NCBI GenBank assembly: GCA_965112155.1
Contig: OZ218099.1
Direction: 5' to 3' (one strand)
From: Podarcis liolepis
Taxonomy: Eukaryota
Length of the DNA stretch: 64,000 nt
Position 1 is the first letter of the stretch; the number at the start of each line of letters is the position of its first letter. Both the position numbers and the translations under genes were made by a program. Under the pieces are notes generated by a model. That model did not search any database. It was not told where the DNA came from and was given only the letters and a program-made list of their open reading frames with translations. Below are positions 9,167 to 57,786 of this stretch, piece by piece.

Positions 9167-9373
9167 CCTTTAGAAAAGAGATAAGCCTTTCCATGACAGA
9201 ACAATTTCTTCTCCAGTATTTGGCAGGAATTCCCAAGTTATTACACAAAGTTAAATGTTGGGGGAAAGCAAGGAAGCTTTTGTTCTTGTTAAGCTGGGAA
9301 TGAGTGCAATTTTACCATTGGCTAAATGTAATGTAACAAACCATAGTGATGTTGTCTTCTTTTGCCTCTCCAG

Positions 9374-9877
9374 TTTTCTTTCCTGATGACAGAAGCCCTT
9401 CTGACTTTCTCTCCAGAGAGCTCCCTCCTCCAGTCCTTCTCCCGGAAGGCCAAGGTCCGCTTCCATTGGGCTTTACAGTTGCTCTCACTCACCTGTGCAG
9501 TGTTGGGCTTGGCCATCATCAGCTATAACAAGTACCGCAAGGGGAAAGACCACTTTGTCACCTGGCACGGTTTGACTGGCTTGCTGACTGTGCTGTATGC
9601 TACCATGCAGTGCATGGGGGGCCTTGCTCTGCTCTACCCCAAGCTGATGAAGAACTGGACACTGAGCAAACTCAAGCTTTACCACGCCACATCAGGGCTG
9701 ATTGGTTACATTCTTGGCTGTGCCAGTTTGATGCTGGGTATGTGTTCCTTGTGGTTTACCATATCTGTAACTGGAGTCTCCTGGTATCTGTCCATGCTGT
9801 GTCCTATCCTCACCAGCCTGGTTATCATGAACCAAGTGAGCAATGCCTACCTCTATCGCAAAAGAATCCAACCTTAA
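9374..9877 (+). CDS. CYB561D2: CYB561D2 last coding exon (transmembrane cytochrome b561 D2; total 669 nt, 222 aa)
   Basis: [19 protein letters not shown]...HWALQ...TWHG...KLYHATSG...[15 protein letters not shown]; acceptor ctctccAG at 9372-9373. Confidence 0.97.
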
Positions 9878-19277: not shown

Positions 19278-21257
19278 CATTTTAGAAATGTTGTATTTCC
19301 TCATTTTCACCTAAAAACAGCATTCAAGGCTACATTCAGCTATTTTGATAACCTTCAAAGGCATGAGGAACCTGTGACCTCCAGATGTCACTGGCCTCTA
19401 AATTCTGTCACCCCGTCCATTAGTCATGCTGTTTGGGGCTGATAGGAGCTGGATTCTACCAGCATATGTACAGCTACGAGTTCTCATATGTACCAGCACT
19501 TAACCTTGATATTCAGAGATAACCTTGATATTCAGAGAAGAGGTAGTCTGTTGCTGGGTCCTATCTACTTCTGCCTTTGATACAATCAAATAATTATTTA
19601 GATCTGCACCAAATTGCTCATCGTAATCAAATAGTCATCATTCAATTGTTCCAATATGCATGCTGAACACCTAAAAAACAGGGGTGGCTAACCTTGGGCC
19701 CTCCAGGGATTGCTGACCTGCAGTGTCCATCATTCCTGAGCATTGGCCATGCTGGCTGGGGGCGCTGATGGAGAGTTTGAGGCCAACAATATTTGGAGCA
19801 TCCCTATCTTACAGAATATTCCCTTTCATGAGGTGAATATTTTACTAGCACAAAGTGAATACATGTGGACTCTTTGCCTTCCTAGAAGAAAATAGTAAGG
19901 GATTTGTCATATCCATTCTGCCTGGAGCTCCTGTGCGAGCAAGGCTTCCTTTGTGCCAAGCAGAGCTCTAAGCATGCCATTGGGACATGTGGGATAAGCT
20001 TCTCCTAAGCTGAAGAAAGCTGGCAAGCCTTTAACAGACACAATAGATCTTCTGCATATGTAATTGGGACAATAGTTGGCTCAAATGGGCATTAGCACAG
20101 TGTTGTACTAGGTGATTTTAACACCTATATTTTAGGCAATACAGTTAAAAATTACACCTAGCTTTGTTAAAAATGCTTCAGAGCTGAACACTGCTGAAAG
20201 CTGTATTAGTGGAACACACTGCACAGTTATATCTACACATATAGCGCTATTAACTGCCTGACAACTTGACTTAATCATTCAATTTGCTCCAGGCATTCAG
20301 AGTTCTGCATTTTGATGGTGTAAAGTGCACAATAATGACTTTCATCATCAGATTCTTTCATTTGGAAATGCGAAACTAAGTTAAAAGCAAGAGACATATA
20401 TAGGTGTGGCAATTACTGAAATTAGTTAGACTACTAAAATTCTGGATTACTACAGTCTTCAAACAGGACTGAAGCAAGAAAAAGTATACATACACTTGTG
20501 CATTTTTAAAAATGTATGCCAGTAATCTGTGAAAAGCACAATAAGATTTTAAGTTGGATACTCGCTGGCAGTGTTTAACTAGATAGTTTGCAAAGAAAAG
20601 TTTTTGGTTGTTTATGAACCAAAAACAGATCTTATAATTTCTTTTTTAAAGAAACGTTATTGGAGTTAGTGTGACTACAAAAACATGACTACAACTGAAC
20701 TAAGCTTTAAGTGTCAATATGCAGCACCACTGCAAAGGACAAGCTGGCTGCAATCCTGTGGCGGGACTTACTCCCAGGTAAATGTAGAAACTCAGAACTG
20801 CACTGCTAAGCTCTTCAGTTTGACAAAGGAGTAAATTTTATTGTTTTTATTTCAGAAGCAGTGCTATTCTCATACTCCTTAATTACACCTACGTTTACTA
20901 GAAGAGCATCTAAATATTCATTAATATACTTATTATAACAATTAAATATTAATAGTCTTGACTTTTTAAAGATTTTTGCTTGTTTTTTTAAACAAGTGTT
21001 TGGATGGATTAAATGTTTTTGTATGGATTCTGTGCACAAATAAAAAATTAATGCAACTTCTCTTTATGGGTCTTAACTCTTTAGTGTATTTGCAGTCAGT
21101 GTTAGAATTTCTGACACATAAATGTAGGTTACGGGCACCACAATGGAATGTCTAGGCTCCTTTTCCCCAGTTGAATTTATTACTATTATTATTACTTAAA
21201 TTTCTATACTGGTTTATATTCTAAAGAATGAAATGCAACGCAGTTTACTACACATTA

Positions 21258-21497
21258 CAGTGGTACCTCGGGTTACATACGCTTCAGGTTACATACACCA
21301 GGTTACAGACTCCGTTAACCCAGAAATAGTACTTCGGGTTAAGAACTTTGCTTCAGGATGAGAACGGAAATCATGCTCCGGCGGCGCGGCGGCAGCAGGA
21401 GGCCCCATAGGCTAAAGTGGTGCTTCAGGTTAAGAACAGTTTCAGGTTAAGAACGGACCTCCGGAACGAATTAAGTACTTAACCCAAGGTACCACTG
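21258..21497 (+). mobile_element. Tc1/mariner (Tigger-like) MITE, copy 1
   Basis: TIR cagtggtacctcgggtta...taacccaaggtaccactg, TA TSD on both sides. Confidence 0.9.
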
Positions 21498-21954
21498 TAC
21501 TTAGTATGCCCTTGTGCACTCAGTGATTCAGCAAACAGTACGTGCTGGGCTGTCCCTGCAGGGAACACTTGTGTGGTACAATTCCTTCATGTCACTTCAG
21601 ATATGTATGCAAACAGATGGGAAACGTGATAGTTTGAGGTCCCAATGTTTAGTTTCCCCCATGTACTTGCGTACTTGACTCCCTTTTACATATTGCAGAA
21701 ACAACATGGTGCTGTGGAAATGCAGGGGTTGTCTGTAGCAGATTTTAGAAAATCTGAAAATACACCACAAACAGTGTTAGAAACTAGCCAGGCAACAGGT
21801 TCATCTTGGCTTGGGTCCACTTGCGACCACGTGGAGATCTCTGGATGCCAGGCTGGTGATTGGGGAAAGCAAAATGTCACTTAGAGAAGAACCTGAAATA
21901 TTTTCCTTGAAGCTTGAATTTGTTTTATTCTGGATTGTTTTGTTTGATGTTATA

Positions 21955-22173
21955 CAGTGGTACCATGGGTTAAGTACTTAATTCGTTCCGGAGGTCCGTT
22001 CTTAACCTGAAGCATCACTTTAGCTAATGGGGCCTCCTGCCGCGCCGTCAGAGCACGATTTCTGTTCTCATCCTGAAGCAAAGTTCTTAACCTGAGGTAC
22101 TATTTCTGGGTTAGTGGAGTCTGTAACCTGAAGCGTATGTAACCTGAAGCGTATGTAACCTGAGGTACCACTG
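21955..22173 (-). mobile_element. Tc1/mariner (Tigger-like) MITE, copy 2, inverted relative to copy 1
   Basis: Same TIRs and TA TSD; the interior is the reverse complement of copy 1. Confidence 0.9.
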
Positions 22174-22424
22174 TACATCAGCCTGCTGACTACAACTGGG
22201 CTACTCCTATACAAAGACAGAACAAGCACACTGAGCTTCAAAAAATCTTGAATCCCCAGATTTTGATTTTTTTTAAAGATCCAGATAGGCACAAATGGAG
22301 TACCAGCAATATAGAAGACACTTTTAAAATATTGAATTAGATGACTTCCTCCATTTCCTTCTCACCAATGTTCAACAGTGAACATAAGTAGTCTCCAAAA
22401 AGTTTTATATTGCAGGAATATTAC

Positions 22425-23278
22425 CTTCTCCGTTCAGCATCCTGAGGATCTGTTCCTGGTAAGCTGATAGTAATAGATGAAGGGGCACCAACATCATAAC
22501 GTTTCACTGTTTTTCGACAGACTTTCACTTTGACCAAGACGCTGTGCACAAGGTTGGCTAGCAAGCCAACCACTGGTTGTAGGATCTCAGGGAAAAATGT
22601 GGCAAATGCAAAGTGGTCTGACATATCACCACGTCCTCGGCTGTGCCTCTGGTAAAAACGGAGATATATCCAACTGGAGAGGACTCCAAAACCATAAGAG
22701 GCCAAGACATTGCTTTCGATGAGGGTGGTCAATCTCAGAACTGCCAGGATCAGGAGCAAAAGCATGGGAACAACCTTCATCCGCACCTGAGGTACCTTCA
22801 AGACAGTACTGTCACCCATGGTCTGTTTGAGAGCCACCAAGACTCCACCAAGGAAGCCCAGCATGCCATAGATGCGAACGGTAAACAGGTAAGACAGATT
22901 GAATGATTCCATATAGGTGAGAAGATAAGCAAAGGCCCCCAAGAGCCCCACTGATACATTCACCACTGCAAAGAAGATCAAGAGCTCCAGGGCTCCCCAT
23001 AGCGGCTCCAGCAGCCTCCCTGCCACCACTATAGTAGCCAGGCTCACACCTACATCCCAGATGTGTTGTTCCACCACACTGTGGGTTGCTAATGTCCAAA
23101 TCCAAAAGTTGGGTGGGAAGAGAAACCCAGGCGTCACCCCAAGCCCATACACAGTGTCCACAGCAAAGGAGAGAAAGTAGAGCAAGATGACGATGGCACA
23201 TATGGACTTCACCACGACACTGGTGCTGGCCAGAGCAGCCAAGAAGTGTTGCCGAGCTACTGGGAGGTATCTGTTCAT
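22425..23278 (-). CDS. TMEM115: TMEM115 main coding exon (854 nt CDS; Golgi rhomboid-like pseudoprotease, total 353 aa)
   Basis: ATG at 23278, MNRYLPVARQHFL...GVTPGFLFPPNFWIWTLATH...YLRFYQRHSRGRGDMSDHFAFATFFPEILQP...DPQDAERR; donor AG|GTAATA at 22425/22424; 854+208=1062 nt. Confidence 0.97.
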
Positions 23279-23299
23279 CTTTATACCCACAAGCCCTGC

Positions 23300-24470
23300 C
23301 CCACGCGTCAGGGTCCGAGGTCCAAGAGTCTTCGCTTTAGGGGCGAGGCGTTAAGGCGTTGGTGGTGGCCCGGAAAACCCCTTCTTTTCTTTAGCACGGA
23401 TTCGCGGTCGATTCCATCGCCGCCTTCCACGGATCGCCCAAACGGAGGCGACAGCTGATTAAGCCACAGGCCGCTCTGTATGGAGGAGGAGGAGGAAGGA
23501 AAGGCGTTCTCTTTTTATCCGGCCTCGTCCCAAATGGGAAAAACCAGCAGCCGCCGCGCCCCACTTTCCTTTGCTTCCGAGCGAGGACCGCTGCACCCTC
23601 TCCTCGCAGCACCCTCGCGCGGCCCAGTCGAGGGCGGCCCCCTTAGCGGAGCGGAGCGAGAGAGGCGCTCGCTCCGGAGCTCACGGGACGGCCAAAGCGG
23701 AGGCGCAGCTCGCTCCCTCCCGCAGCCGAGCCCCTCGCAAGCCCCATTCAGCCCGCCGGCGGGGGCGGGGGCCGCTCAGGGAAGGCCTCCCTTCGGCCTG
23801 CTCGCCGCCGGAAGCCGGAGCCTCGGCCGCTCTGCTTGAGGCCGACTCCCAGGAGCCTTCTCGCCGCCACTTCCCTCTTCCAGGCCAGCACTCCGCTCCT
23901 CGGAAGGGCTCCGCTCAGACGCAAACAAACAGCACGGCTGCGCACGCGTGGCTGTTCTATGAGCTGCGCGGGGCACGCCGGGAAATGGAGGCTCGGCCCT
24001 CGCGCGCGGCGGGCGCTGGCCGCGGCGAGACGACTACGAATCCCAGCATGCATTGGGATGCGGGGTCTGCGCAGGGAAGCGCGGGAGTGCGAGCGGGGCG
24101 GGACAAAGAGGCACCTGAGAGGCGGGGGCTTAGGAGGCGTCCCGGCTGCGAGGAAAGAGCGCGGTGGGGTGGGGCGCGGCTCTTGCGGCCCAAAGCGCAA
24201 CGGTCGTTGGCGAGCGGATGAGGAAGCTAGTCTCGCCGCTGGGCGGAATGGCGGCGTCACCCGCAGGATCTCCTCCTCCTGTTTGCTTTGCCTCGTCACA
24301 GTAACTTGTGCTTGGCAAAGGACCGAAATCATTGGCACGTGCCTGCAGGAATAGGGAGCCCGCCCTCCTGGGTGCGGGGTTGGCGGAGGGGCGCAGCCCT
24401 CGCCTCAGCATTTTTAGTCGCAAGTGAAATCCATTCCGTTTGGTTTAATGGCGCCGCCCTGGCGAGTAAA
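23300..24470 (-). promoter_or_regulatory. CpG-island promoter of TMEM115
   Basis: Very high GC/CpG; ZNF143/THAP11-type motif ACTACGAATCCCAGCATGCA (24033-24052), NRF1-like TGCGCACGCG (23939-23948), ETS CCGGAAG, GC boxes. Confidence 0.85.
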
Positions 24471-42429: not shown

Positions 42430-42432
42430 TTA

Positions 42433-42658
42433 CAGTGGTACATCGGGTTAAGAACTTAATTCATTCTGGAGGTCCGTTCTTAACCTGAAACTGTTCTTAA
42501 CCTGAGGTACCACTTTAGCTAATGGGGCCTCCCGCTGCTGCTGTGCCGCCGGAGCACGATTTCTGTTCTCATCCTGAAGCAAAGTTCTTAACCCGAGGTA
42601 CTATTTCTGGGTTAGCGGAGTCTGTAACCTGAAGTGTCTGTAACCTGAGGTACCACTG
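42433..42658 (-). mobile_element. Tc1/mariner (Tigger-like) MITE, copy 3
   Basis: Same TIRs and TA TSD as the copies at 21258 and 21955. Confidence 0.9.
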
Positions 42659-43247
42659 TAGAGTGTTTTTCGACTCCACCTTGCCCTGTGCTGATCAGCC
42701 AGAGCTCAGCCAGTTTGATAAACAGATTGCACCAGGAACCATGCCTATAAAAGGGCCACACGTTTTAAAAAGAAGTTTCTAGCTCTCCTGGAAGGAAGGT
42801 TATGAAGCAAAACATGCATGTACAAAGGTGTGTAGGTATCTCAATTTGGGTGAAAAGAAGCTATCAACTACCTATCACCCAAAGGGACTTCACACCCCAC
42901 CGCTTGCATTAAGACTTAGCACAGGTAAGTATTTTCATATGTGCATGCCAACTGATAATGGGGAGGTGGAGGTGTGCTCTGGAACAGCCCATGTGACCTG
43001 AAAAGCACCACCCACTTTTCATGCGCCTCCCACTCTAAACGTTGCCATGGGCCATGGAATTGCGCAATGAATACAGTCCAATATTCATTGGCATGTAGAA
43101 ACAGAGCAGCAATTCCACTCTCAACAAAAACAACACTGCAATGCCGAGGCAGGGGGGAGAAGGGGAGGGAAGGGTTCCAATGTGGTTGGGCCCATTATGT
43201 TGAACCTGATACCGCATCATGCAGCAGAGCTGAGAAGCAAAGGATAC

Positions 43248-49981: not shown

Positions 49982-52900
49982 TTTTCTTTTTTTTGCAAAT
50001 TAAATTTTTATTGATTTTCAGTACACGTACATACATTCATAAATTACACATATATAGGTTACATATTTAACTTAGGCTCTATCATGCCTCTGACTTCCCT
50101 CCATTTCTTTGGTAAGTATCAAATAAAGTTCTAATATCACGTACTCTATATATCTTATTATCAACTGCACGCTGTAAGAGTTATTCCAACCCTACCAGTG
50201 TCTTCAAAGATTTACAATTGTTTCTTATATACATCAAATATTTACTCCAATTTTCTTGAAACTTCTGCTCGTCCTGATCTCTTAATTTTCCTGATAGTCT
50301 GGCCAGTTCTGCGTAGTCCATCATTTTAACCTGCCAGTCCATTATATTCAGTATTATGTCTGTTTTCCAATTCTGAGCTAACATATTTCTGGCTGCTGTC
50401 GTGGCATATAAAAATAGGTTTTTATCTTTTTTTCCAATTTCCTTTCCAATCAATCCCAGTAGAAAAGCTTCAGGTCTTTTTGGGAAAGTATATTTAAAGA
50501 TTTTTTAAAGTTTGTTATAGATTAGTGTCAGGGAACTGACATCAGAGCAGAGGGGAGAGGCGAGGCTCCCAGATTCTGCAGGAGAGGGAACGAGTAAGGG
50601 AAGAGAGAGAACGTCATCTGGGGAAGGAAGTCCAGGTGACACCAGGAAGAAGGGAGAGGCAGAGAGCATCTCGGAGGTGAGGCTCCGAGACTCTTCCAGT
50701 GAAGTCAGTGAGGAGGGTGGAGGACCACCACTCGGCACGCCCACTCTGCGCAGAAGGCTTCCGCGCAGAGAGGTGAGGCGAAGGTTGTCCGTTAAGGAAT
50801 TCTTATGCTGGAGGAAATTTAGGAGACGCCCACTCACGGATTCTGCTAGCGACTGAGCAGCAGCGCCAAGGGCTGCTCAGTCAGGGAAAGACACAACCCC
50901 CCACTAAGCAGTTTGGAACAGCTGAAGGTTTACACACAAGCAACCCCAATTCCCTTGACAATTAGTTCCCAAAAGCCCTTCACTTTACTACAGGTCCACC
51001 ACATATGGTAGAGGTCACCCTCTACCTCTCCACAGTTCCAACATTTTTTTATTTTTTGTTCTATACATCCTTGCTAGCTTTATCGGCGTTAGATGCCATC
51101 TGTAGATCATTCTCCTTTAAAGCAGTACAAGCCGTAAATTTCATGTTTATATTCCATAGTTCTTGCCACGCATCAAAATGGATATTATGGCCGAAATCAA
51201 TAGCCCATTTAACCATAGCTTCCTTTATCTCTTCGTCTTTTGTATACCAATCCAATAATAAAGCGTATATTTTTGATAATAATTTATTTTTACCTTCTAG
51301 AATATCAATATTGAATTTAGATTTCTTATCCTCGAATCCCTTTTTCCTTTTATCTTCTTTTAGTAGATCATTAACTTGGTGATACTGTAACCACCCTGTA
51401 AATAAATTCTCTACCTCCTCATACGGTTTCAGTTTTATATCGTGATCTGTCTTTTTGATTAGTTCTTCATAAGTAACTTTTTTCCCTTCCATATTGACTT
51501 TTTTGATAGTTAAAACTTCTATTGGTGAAATCCACCAAGGGGTTTTCCTTTCCAATAGGTCTTTATTTCTTTCCCAAACATGAAATATTGATCCTCTGAT
51601 TATATGGTTTAGAAAACCCTTGTGAACTTTCACCTTCTCATACCATAGGTACGAGTGCCACCCGTACCTATTATCAAAACCTTCTAAGTCTAAGAGATTG
51701 GTGTTTTCTAATTTTATCCAGTCTTTCACCCATGTTAAACATGCCGCTTCGTAGTATAGACTCAGTTCTGGCAGGAAAAAGCCTCCTCTTTCTTTTTTAT
51801 CCACCAAGATTTTCATTTTTATTCTCGGTTTTTTCCCCTGCCAGACGAATCTTACTAATGTTTTTTGCCATTCTTTAAGTTGTTTTAGCCCTTTAATTAC
51901 TGGAATATTTTGGAATAGAAATAACATTCTGGGCAAAACATTCATTTTAATCATAGATATTCTCCCCAAGAATGACAACTTTAATCTATCCCATATTTCT
52001 AGGTCCTTTTTAATACCCCTCCATGTTGCCTCATAATTGTCTTTGTATAAGTTTATATTTTTTGTTGTAATCCATACTCCTAAGTATATAACTTTCTTAA
52101 CTGCTGTAATTCCAGATCTTTGTTGTAGTTCCTCTACCTCTTCCTTGGTCATGTTCTTTGTCAGCATTTTGGTCTTATTCTTGTTAAGTTTGAGTCCCGC
52201 CACCTTGCTGAATTCTTCTAGTCTCTGTAAGGCTTCTTGTAAACTCTTCTTTGGCTCTTCTAATGTTAACACTAGATCATCCGCGAATGCTTTAATTTTG
52301 TACTCTTTACTTCCTACCTTGATCCCTTTAACTTCTGATGCTTCTCTTAGCCTCTTGTTAAAAACCTCTAATACTGTTATGAATAACAGGGGAGTCAGGG
52401 GGCAACCCTGTCTAGTCCCTTTAGCGATATCAAAAGGTTCCGATATATTGCTATTTATTATGAGTTTGGCTTTTTGATCTTGATATATGGCTTCAATTCC
52501 TTTTCCAAACCCTTCTCCAACTCCCATTGCTTTTAGATTTTCTTTCATAAATCTCCAGGAGATGTTATCGAATGCTTTTTCGGCATCAATAAATATCAAT
52601 GCCGCTTGCTTGTCTATCCTGTTCTCTAAATATTCAATAATGTCTATGACATTTCTTACATTATCTTTCAGTTGTCTTCCCGGAAGAAAGCCTGCTTGAT
52701 CTTTGTGAATTTTCCCATTTAAAAGTCTTTTTAATCTTTCCGCCAATACATCAGCAAATATTTTGTAGTCGTTATTTAACAAGGAGATGGGTCTGTAGTT
52801 TTTAACTTCTAAGCCATCTGCATCTTTTTTTGGGATCAAGGTAATGTAAGCTTCCTTCCACGTGGCTGGGATTTTTCCTTCTTTTAAGATGTTATTCATG

Positions 52901-53205
52901 ACCTCGCATAACACTGGAACTATTTGGTCACATAATGTTTTATAATATTTAGATGAAATGCCACCTGGCCCCGGAGCCTTTCCCATTTTCATTTTTTTAA
53001 ATTGTTTTCCGAATTTCTTGTTCTGTAATTGTCTGTTTTAATTGTTCTCTTTCATCTTCCGTAATCTGTTGCAATTGGTATTTTTCCAAATATTGTTCTA
53101 TTCTATTATCTGTCTCTTTCTCTTTTCTATATAATTCTTTATAATATTTCTGAAAAATCTTTCTTATCTCTTTGGGGTCTTCCACTATCTTTTCTCCATC
53201 CCTTA
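49982..53205 (-). mobile_element. 5'-truncated L1-clade LINE (ORF2 RT and C-terminal region), frameshifted and interrupted by a solo LTR
   Basis: ORF 51061-52992 has RT motifs NYRPISLLN, DAEKAFD, GTRQGCPLTPLLF and FADD; further pieces at 52997-53205 and 50181-50453; A-rich tail with AATAAA (50007-50012); 18-bp TSD TGGTCTTCACTTGTTTTC (49964-49981, 53206-53223). Confidence 0.95.
50526..50960 (+). mobile_element. Solo LTR copy A (435 bp), nested in the L1
   Basis: TGTCAGGGAA...TTCCCTTGACA inverted termini; 5-bp TSD ATTAG (50521-50525, 50961-50965). Confidence 0.9.
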
Positions 53206-55489: not shown

Positions 55490-57246
55490 CTTTAATAAAA
55501 TCAACCAGCCCCACAGAATGTCACAAGCTTTTGGCAGAGATTTCATTTTCCATATAGCCGCAAATAAAATATTGGCCTTTTTTAAAAACCCATCAATAAT
55601 ATGTACTATGAACATTTATACTTTCACAACCGGTCTTAGAGACAGGGAGGTGATAGCTGAGAAAGTCCAAATGTTCATTATACATACATATACACAGAAT
55701 TGTAGAGATGGATCATCATATGTAAACAAATAATATATTTCACCTCTGAAATATAGGATGGTATTGAGCCATAAATGTTCTTTTATTAAGACTACCAGCT
55801 ATTTACTGTGGCTGTGGTGCAGTTTTCATTTTGCACAGACAAGTGCTTGGCAAACCTACCCTTTTTGCAGCCCCAGGCAAACAGAGGATCAGGAAGTCTA
55901 CCAGGCCCCTTTCAAGCTGCATTTGGTTTAGTGAATCACAAGTTACGCAGGCACAATTCATTGTCTACTGTCAGCCTTTAAAGATAATTACACGCTTTCA
56001 GAAACCTCTAAAACCACAAGGGTCACAGAATCACAGCGATGATTAAAACTTAATAGTTGTCCGCCTATATTCCTTTGAGCATCAAGGGCACCTGAACCCA
56101 GTAAATTACTACTAATAATTTCCCCCTGAAGGAGGTAGTTGGGAATACAAATCTATTTTGTCGTCAGGAAAAGTGTTGTGAGGGTCTTATTAACCAGAAG
56201 TGTCCTTCAGTGACACAGGCTGCAAAGTTGTTAGTGGGTACACTTTGACATTACCTTTTGCTCCTTGTGCTAAAAAGAAGGTCATTCAACACCTTAAAAG
56301 AACATATCAAGGAATGGATTTGCTGGATGCCCAAAGTAATGTGGTACCATTAGTATTCTGTCTACCTCAACAGTAATTTTTGGAAACCTAACAATGCCAA
56401 CAGTTATGGCTTTTCCCATCTGCCTTGTCCCACCCTCCAGCCCAAGGAGCCTTCATAAGGGAGCTGTTTCCAGAGGAAGAACTATGAGGGGAGAGAGACT
56501 CTGTTCGCGGGGGGGGGGGGGGCTGGTTTCACCTGTGTGGCTCCACCTTCAGCCCAAGGAACCTTCAGAAGGGAGTTGCTGCCATGGGCATTATGCGTTT
56601 GTGTATTTTAATAAGATGAACAGAGGGTGTGGAGTGTCTGCGTGCATGAACTTCACAGCGCTTAGTTCATCTTTTGGTTGCTATTTTGTTAATGTTGTTA
56701 ATAGTGTTTTATGGATTATAAGTGCTGCATTGATTTGTTAATCCTATGACTTTTGCTTTCATTGTGATGTTTAGCTTATTTTTTAGTTTCTTGATTTGTT
56801 AACAGTGTTTTATAGATTATAACTGTTTCACTGTAAATTTGTTAATTATTCGGTATGATTTATGCTGTATTTGTGATGTTTTGTTATTGTTTGAAGGCTG
56901 CCTTGGGATTCAGTTGAATTAAAAATGACATAGAAATACTGTATAATCAATCATATCAAAATCAAATCAATTCGGATATTAGAAATGTTTAAGAGGACAA
57001 GTGCAATAAAATGTACATAAAATATTTCTAAAATATTTTTTTCAGTGTAGCTTGACAGAGATAAAAATGCATAAAACATGTTTCATATAGATATGACAAC
57101 ACATGAACACTTGCACCCTTAAGGAAGTAATTAAATTGTTGCATTAGTTTCACTGGGACTTGGGCTGCAATGTAACTGTAGTTACCTGGGAGTAAGCTTC
57201 ACTTCAGTCAACAGGACTTACTTCTGAGTAGATGTGGTTAGGAGTG

Positions 57247-57678
57247 TCTCAGGGAACTGACATCGGAGCTAGAGGCGGAGGGAAGGCTCTCAAATGATGC
57301 TGGAGAAGGGCCCAGCAGGGAGAGAAGCAGCTCAGCAGATGGGGAAGCAAATCAGCGCAACACCAGGGATAAGGGGGGGCAGATGGGGGAATCGGCGAGA
57401 GGGCTCCAGGACTCTTCACCAGACACCAGCGGGGAGAGCACGGGTCCTCCGCTACCCACGCCCTCCCTGCGCAGAAGACTTCCGCGCAGGGAGAGTAGGA
57501 GGAGACTTGGCGTCAAACAACTTTTATGTTGGAAAAGGTTTAAGAAACGCCCACTGACGGATTCTGCTAGCGACTGAGGCAGCCACGAAGTGAAGGGCTG
57601 TCCAGACAGAAAGGTTTAACCAGGCAACATAGCCAGGAGAGGCGGCAACTTACGCACAAGCAACCCATACTCATTACA
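57247..57678 (+). mobile_element. Solo LTR copy B (432 bp), same family as 50526-50960
   Basis: Colinear with copy A from T(C/G)TCAGGGAACTGACATC to cacaagcaaccc...ACA; 5-bp TSD GAGTG (57242-57246, 57679-57683). Confidence 0.88.
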
Positions 57679-57786
57679 GAGTGTATCCTTAATCATTACT
57701 AACTCTAGATTATGGTAGATTGGGGCCACTAAATGCTAAACACATTCTCTTCAGCTACAGATGATGCGACAAACACTTGTCACTTA

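Follow-up and report, generated by a model that had tools for sequence, protein, structure and literature searches.

Two solo LTRs sharing an open frame

The window analysed here is a 64,000-nt stretch of contig OZ218099.1 of Podarcis liolepis (assembly GCA_965112155.1). It holds two solo long terminal repeats (LTRs), A and B, each flanked by a target-site duplication (TSD) and belonging to different subfamilies of one retrotransposon family, termed family 1 (Table 1); LTR B begins with TC where TG is the usual start. Both are very probably solo LTRs of a Tf1/sushi-type chromovirus (Ty3/Gypsy) with the tail of Pol encoded in the LTR. The peptide that each encodes is the last 109 residues of Pol, lying within U3-R, and its arginine-rich segment is under purifying selection, with a ratio of nonsynonymous to synonymous divergence (dN/dS) of about 0.15.

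The frame had been noticed in a preliminary description made from the sequence of the window, and its account of the two copies was reproduced in most respects. Both 330-nt frames, starting at the second base of the LTR, are open and free of indels relative to each other. In the C-terminal 44 codons, 34 residues are identical (13 of them through different synonymous codons), and the ten changes are mostly conservative (G/P, T/S, V/S, S/G, E/Q, F/L and four R/K swaps). Copy A has no in-frame start codon, as was stated, and B has one in-frame ATG, at codon 46. The basic segment of the peptide contains 14 lysines or arginines in 36 residues. A Pfam search with the A and B peptides matched no family, a PDB sequence search with the 192-aa tail as query returned nothing at E up to 10, and an ESM Atlas search gave no usable match.

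LTR A sits just past the end of a 658-aa open frame on the minus strand (window 51061-53037) that matches RVT_1 (E 9.8e-40) and is probably a long interspersed nuclear element (LINE); the LTR may be inserted in that LINE.

The parent element and the course of its Pol frame

Six-frame searches of the genome gave 8118 first-look candidates with the A peptide (150 scored) and 8159 with the B peptide; 51 loci were examined, and an LTR pair was present in 24. The recovery of full-length two-LTR elements, suggested earlier as a check, showed Pol to be the frame that crosses the polypurine tract (PPT) into the 3′ LTR. Element L031, 5.8 kb in length, has two 433-nt LTRs (99.1% identity) and the TSD CTATC. 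It carries a gag frame of 345 aa (Retrotrans_gag, CCHC) and a 1351-aa pol frame that crosses the PPT, finishes with the peptide and ends at the very stop previously described. Along this Pol, Pfam places in order protease (RVP_2, residues 58-162; others below the cut-off), reverse transcriptase (RVT_1, 274-434), RNase H (RT_RNaseH, 522-627), H2C2, rve (798-896), SH3_Tf2-1 and Chromo (1104-1149; 31.4 bits vs a cut-off of 25.1), followed by about 200 aa without a family. The order protease, reverse transcriptase, RNase H and integrase (PR-RT-RH-IN), with a C-terminal chromodomain on the integrase, is that of a Ty3/Gypsy chromovirus. Frames from other subfamilies (L123, L124 and L125; 1398, 1412 and 1374 aa) share the same kind of ending. 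The phylogenetic tree took in the three families of this genome (see below) and UniRef relatives, with no named reference elements.

Phase is kept between the chromodomain and the LTR frame at 39 of 54 distinct junctions and at 17 of 19 further ones, and the chromodomain-to-LTR spacings (203-251 nt) differ among subfamilies by multiples of three. The junction-spanning query mildly favours in-frame copies, and the junction counts are not independent draws; more generally, the copies are related and partly duplicated, and pair counts and p-values overstate their independence.

The preliminary description had offered two origins for the frame, either as a Pol/integrase tail entering from the internal region or as an accessory protein, and had named Nef, Sag, Rev, Rex and Rec as analogies. 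The first is borne out by the phase with the chromodomain and by the end of Pol at the peptide stop in two-LTR copies. The second found no support, as the element encodes gag and pol alone, and the analogies fall away with a parent that is a chromovirus and not a retrovirus. The frame does not match an accessory gene of the retroviral U3 type (Nef/Sag/Rec), being continuous with Pol and lacking a conserved ATG. Any separate accessory gene, read from spliced or internally started RNA and binding RNA for its export, is very improbable. The density of K/R residues, the ATG in B, and copies in which Pol stops where the LTR begins and the LTR frame stays open would suit such a gene, but the frame is continuous with the chromodomain at most junctions, indels between subfamilies keep it, no ATG is conserved, and no internal splice joint was seen in L125 among the best-supported joints listed, at low read depth.

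The same layout recurs elsewhere in the genome. Family 2 (6421 first-look candidates) is 63% identical to family 1 over the RT-IN core; its LTR of 757 nt contains 210 Pol codons, has its own 11-nt primer and primer-binding site (PBS) and TATTAAG at -31, and encodes a basic end with L-x-W at the same distance from the primer as in family 1. Family 3, with 50% core identity to family 1 and many frames of 1558 and 1564 aa, has 110-119 Pol codons in its LTR, a 10-nt primer/PBS and GATAAAAG at -30 from the primer; the frame stops just upstream of the GATAAAAG box, and the basic end includes PRRSARL. Open U3 frames of 100-210 codons are kept in three families, the tails of which are barely alignable (28% over 192 residues between families 1 and 2). 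As judged from these alignments, what the three have in common is the layout more than the tail sequence.

Several further observations concern these families. Family 3 (L180-L211) is very young and abundant, its LTR pairs being 99.5-100% alike, and three of its matches on contig C2 are spaced 5005 nt apart, which suggests a tandem array. Family 2 was found at L040:2064-6149, L143 and L212-L215, with one copy nested within a family 1 element, and its chromodomain-like region falls short of a Pfam Chromo match. In families 1 and 3, a G homopolymer upstream of the PPT varies in length, and this takes the LTR tail out of the Pol frame in a sizeable share of copies. L031 has an extra ~230 nt at the gag/pol boundary (L031:4900-5130) that is not in sister copies and alters the end of gag. 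By hand count, the internal chromodomain-PPT region has 91 of its 150 listed matches on contig C20 (40 Mb), vs 1 of 150 for the B LTR peptide, and many of the C20 matches fall in apparently duplicated blocks at 24-30 Mb; such a pile-up of internal-sequence copies would fit a non-recombining sex chromosome.

Protein and nucleic-acid constraints on the same bases

The PBS of the family 1 elements is an 11-nt site set 2 nt behind the 5′ LTR and is not of tRNA type. It is the reverse complement of LTR positions 307-317, as in the Tf1/sushi group, where the PBS is complementary to a site in the LTR instead of a tRNA. This self-primer and the PBS pair perfectly (11/11) in 18 of the 22 two-LTR elements compared, and with one mismatch (10/11) in the remaining four; two of the 24 LTR-pair loci were left out, their LTR start not being located, and L124 separately pairs 11/11. 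There are four primer versions, each with a matching PBS, and a single discordant copy (L033). In the window, LTRs A and B bear different versions of the site. About 30 nt before the primer, the Leu codon at the TATA-like position has A as its third base in 23 of 23 copies; four of the five other Leu columns tallied vary at the codon end. In 20 of 24 two-LTR elements, U5 can form a duplex of at least 8 nt with the sequence behind the PBS. When L031 is folded, the minimum-energy structure (z = -2.85) includes this duplex together with a hairpin downstream of the stop; the primer/PBS duplex is not part of it. Neither AATAAA nor ATTAAA is present in A or B to mark an R/U5 border.

By comparison with Tf1, RNA would start at the self-primer, the first base of which would be the start of R. 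U3 would then occur in the genomic RNA at its 3′ end alone and be translated there as the end of Gag-Pol, the frame covering all of U3 and stopping 25 nt into R. Transcription from the promoter of a 5′ or solo LTR would not yield the peptide. Because the peptide would be translatable only from the 3′ LTR of genomic RNA, A and B would merely preserve the selection that acted on their parents. On the same account, the last ~20 codons would serve the protein, the TATA-like site and the primer together.

Pairwise NG86 comparison of A and B in the coding frame put dN/dS at 0.37 over the full length, with 0.57 for the N-terminal and 0.16 for the C-terminal portion. Of the other five frames, four gave 1.0-1.2 over the whole length, and the antisense one with common third positions mirrors the coding frame (0.41). 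In the 36 basic codons, taken without the primer-overlapping end, differences at the three codon positions number 8/7/17 (third-position excess, p = 0.016). The codon analysis across subfamilies rested on 175 diverged pairs from 23 copies unbroken from chromodomain to stop; the other 31 of the 54 junctions were excluded as broken, out of frame or short. Most of the 23 had been retrieved with the upstream region, not the peptide, as query. The resulting dN/dS was 0.09 for the chromodomain, 0.24 for the acidic pre-LTR stretch, 0.41 for the U3 linker (bootstrap 0.26-0.59), 0.15 for the U3 basic segment (column bootstrap 0.07-0.29) and 0.11 for the primer/R codons.

These values, below 1 in the coding frame, agree with the earlier suggestion of purifying selection on the Arg-rich part, for which a six-frame dN/dS check had been proposed. 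Two other statements need modification. The N-terminal ~65 codons stay in frame, as claimed, and do not diverge freely. The C-terminal conservation is a protein signal as regards purifying selection, and is in part a nucleic-acid constraint, since the self-primer and the TATA-like site lie in the frame.

Constraints of the latter kind might account for everything if the tail were translated as near-neutral read-through and conserved through promoter and RNA structure. The primer, the invariant A of the TATA-like Leu codon (23/23) and the U5 duplex can all be read in this way, as can the out-of-frame copies that are common at long G-runs, family 3 included (6/28). Synonymous divergence in the basic segment is, however, high (pS 0.56, with a nonsynonymous pN of 0.145), which argues for constraint at the protein level; columns of K, R and E hold the residue constant through several codons, and three families with 50-63% core identity all retain an open U3 frame, 100-210 codons long. 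Near-neutral read-through is accordingly rated improbable.

Table 1. Features of solo LTRs A and B, in window positions
Feature	Position	Strand	Remarks
Left TSD copy of A, ATTAG	50521-50525	+	5 bp; right copy 50961-50965
Solo LTR A	50526-50960	+	Very probably Tf1/sushi-type chromovirus, family 1; coding part 99.7% identical to 3′ LTR of element in L040
LTR-encoded Pol end in A, stop included	50527-50856	+	330 nt, 109 codons + stop
Ser/Gly/Glu-rich linker of A (VRELTS...)	50527-50721	+	U3-encoded; codons 1-65; weak purifying selection
Arg-rich segment of A	50722-50829	+	U3-encoded; codons 66-101; strong purifying selection
TATA-like site of A	50800-50807	+	Inside frame, 32 to 25 nt before primer; putative promoter role
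Self-primer of A, ACTCACGGATT	50832-50842	+	11 nt; complements PBS behind 5′ LTR; overlaps codons P-L-T-D-S
Pol stop codon in A	50854-50856	+	Ends 25 nt from first base of self-primer
U5 block of A, CACAAGCAACCC	50935-50946	+	Conserved; complements sequence 3′ of PBS in full-length copies (putative pretzel-type duplex)
Left TSD copy of B, GAGTG	57242-57246	+	5 bp; right copy 57679-57683
Solo LTR B	57247-57678	+	Other subfamily of family 1; coding part 96.9% identical to 3′ LTR in L113
LTR-encoded Pol end in B	57248-57577	+	109 codons + stop; Arg-rich segment 57443-57550
TATA-like site of B, CTTTTATG	57521-57528	+	Putative role
Self-primer variant of B, ACTGACGGATT	57553-57563	+	B-type full-length copies carry matching PBS AATCCGTCAGT
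U5 block of B	57655-57666	+	Conserved

Elsewhere in the window are two host exons, one for cytochrome b561 (9350-9874, plus strand) and one with DUF1751 (22424-23350, minus strand), which we take to be TMEM115-like. Repeats with TACAGTGGTACC-type inverted ends at 21250-22175 and 42431-42666 are probably miniature DNA transposons; similar repeats flank L125 and attract thousands of RNA reads.

Motifs of the tail and comparison with known systems

Two acidic FxGF motifs lie between the chromodomain and the PPT of family 1, in the internal region and hence outside the window. The second is conserved as F 23/23, G 23/23 and F 22/23 (x = R/Q/P/W), the first as F 21/23, G 22/23 and F 19/23 (W in 4; x = E/V/A/M). 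The 82 residues before the LTR include 25 D/E and 13 S/T. Two FxGF motifs occurred by chance in 0.045% of 20,000 shuffles, for a motif picked after being seen. Family 2 has one motif, STF-x-GF, in 7 of 7 rows, and no FxGF was found in the family 3 tail. LEDGF-family domains are encoded at two loci of this genome. FxGF is reported to be essential for the binding of known partners to LEDGF/HRP2, and a TFIIS N-terminal domain (TND)-interacting motif (TIM) needs a hydrophobic helix too (PMC9987994). The family 1 tail is like the TIMs of IWS1, KMT2A, JPO2 and others in its acidic, Ser/Thr-rich disordered stretch and in FxGF with a variable x. It is unlike them in the obligate helix, which shows no clear conservation (12 places from the first Phe, copies have L, W, V, E or a gap), in the location of the motifs upstream of the LTR, and in their lack in family 3.

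The basic tip recalls a different motif, RRSARLSA, reported for HMGN, Dsup and Dot5 to bind nucleosomes (PMC12487698, PMC13347269). Its RRSAR core is present in family 3 only, where the LTR-encoded tip reads PRRSARL; families 1 and 2 have R-R-x-x-R. In A and B the third place is Glu, not Ser, and family 1 as a whole reads RRE[AS]R, the Glu being present in all 23 copies. Family 1 has an invariant Arg 9 residues ahead of a Trp (22/23), and the spacing returns in family 2, place 8 being Cys or Ser; the CENP-C-type motif has an anchor Arg with an aromatic pair 8 and 9 residues downstream (PMC10606924). The L-x-W also overlaps the TATA-like site. Readings of the tip as PP1 RVxF, PIP-box or cyclin RxL were dropped, the key aromatic or spacing positions not being kept. 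A Thr/Ser-Pro before the basic segment in families 1 and 3 (TPTLRR, SPDLQR; codons 38-41 from the stop in family 1) is a possible cell-cycle kinase site.

We lean towards the tail being a disordered integrase end for nuclear import or chromatin tethering. It would likely be retained on the mature integrase, with the arginine-rich tip aiding one of these steps. Beyond the chromodomain, the tail could comprise a series of short motifs directed at chromatin: the pair of acidic FxGF, then a Ser/Glu linker, and finally the basic tip. The narrower proposal that U3 codes for a modular tail mimicking host motifs, FxGF on a TND of the LEDGF/HRP2 type and the Arg tip on the nucleosome acidic patch, is suggested by sequence resemblance and is doubtful. 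If it were true, it would represent an independent route, in a vertebrate LTR retrotransposon, to the host tether of lentiviral integrases, and a single DNA segment would act as coding sequence, promoter and reverse-transcription primer.

The basic tip might instead work inside the particle on the element's own RNA or cDNA, in packaging, priming or protection of cDNA ends, and not on chromatin or importins. Arg-rich helices often bind RNA, and family 1 is without the Ser of the HMGN motif. Gag already supplies a CCHC knuckle, however, the family 3 tip matches the nucleosome-binding core RRSARL of HMGN, and the tail follows the chromodomain, where plant chromoviruses are reported to have targeting domains. 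Such an in-particle role seems unlikely.

The preferred reading as a whole is of an LTR-encoded Pol tail with double-duty bases and a chromatin-directed tip, to which a probability of about 0.7 is given. The Pol frame runs from the chromodomain through the PPT and nearly all of U3, the peptide being its C-terminus. Element type, continuous frame, purifying selection on the tip and primer/PBS covariation are the observed parts of this explanation.

A number of points weigh against it. At 15 of 54 junctions the frames are out of phase, and these are concentrated where a G-run of at least 7 precedes the PPT (in frame 8/18 at a long G-run vs 31/36 otherwise; Fisher p = 0.003); the LTR tail is also out of frame at 6 of 28 element loci in family 3. 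Some out-of-frame copies hold long Pol frames that stop 14 nt inside the LTR. Such copies may be slippage or assembly errors, or may indicate a tail dispensable in cis, and protease could remove the tail from integrase. Nor does the peptide belong to the HMGN motif, since Glu stands where that motif has its Ser. Low-depth RNA coverage of L125, a young subfamily copy, reaches each of its 30 bins, and in two bulk runs from a single study the reads fall mostly on one strand. They are mostly 90-99% alike to L125, as would be expected from related copies or related species, intronic read-through is a possible source, and no transcription-start peak was seen on L125 in four RNA runs at low depth. 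L123, a copy of the A subfamily, is barely covered (13 and 29 partial reads).

The preferred reading explains a protein-coding signature in thousands of LTRs of this genome (~8,100 first-look candidates in family 1 and ~6,400 in family 2), and LTR frames that look coding in this way can lead gene finders and selection scans astray. It places one LTR stretch under three simultaneous constraints, with clean primer/PBS covariation, and may point to insertion-site choice by vertebrate chromoviruses; the literature met on insertion targeting, as far as its available parts go, concerns plant, fungal and retroviral systems.

Few relatives were found outside this genome. Podarcis muralis entries in UniRef named 'Gypsy retrotransposon integrase-like protein 1' (P0005-P0007, P0131-P0136) are automatic gene models with 54-56% identity over residues 1100-1351; P0005 and P0006 include the whole family 1 tail and P0007 most of it. 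Unlike the present description, they offer a name only, giving the tail neither a Pfam domain nor an LTR origin. A HMMER search of 1.84 billion representatives found a single true relative (P0009, 60%), a compositional match (P0010), and no relatives past this close group, in a library poor in repeat-derived eukaryotic proteins. Titles and abstracts from a full-text literature search mentioned neither a vertebrate U3-encoded integrase tail or frame over the self-primer, nor FxGF or HMGN-type motifs in vertebrate LTR retrotransposons; Repbase or Dfam may note the tail.

The closest known systems are the Tf1/sushi group (sushi-ichi, V-clade), described in the available parts of two sources (10.1101/2022.12.06.519325, PMC6317226). 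The elements reported here are like them in their Gag (Retrotrans_gag and CCHC), their PR-RT-RH-IN-chromodomain Pol, the lack of a tRNA PBS, the 11-nt self-primer, a putative pretzel-type duplex and the 5-bp TSD. They are unlike them in the ~200 residues past the chromodomain, 109 of which lie in U3-R, and in the overlap of the frame with the TATA-like site and primer; those parts of the two sources do not mention a post-chromodomain tail. A gag-pol frame reaching into the 3′ LTR is shared with the plant CRM group A and with Reina/Bingo, and CRM group A is reported to have a putative targeting domain encoded in the 3′ LTR (PMC3059260, PMC3605345). Pol extending into the 3′ LTR (plant chromoviruses), self-priming (vertebrate sushi elements) and the tail itself (automatic models) are thus already known, and the novelty is reduced because of the CRM/Reina precedent and the UniRef models that hold the tail. 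CRM elements use tRNA-Met priming and have a CR motif in place of the chromodomain. The family 1 elements share with them the polyprotein frame that extends into the LTR, and combine that frame with an upstream chromodomain and with self-priming in place of a tRNA-Met PBS.

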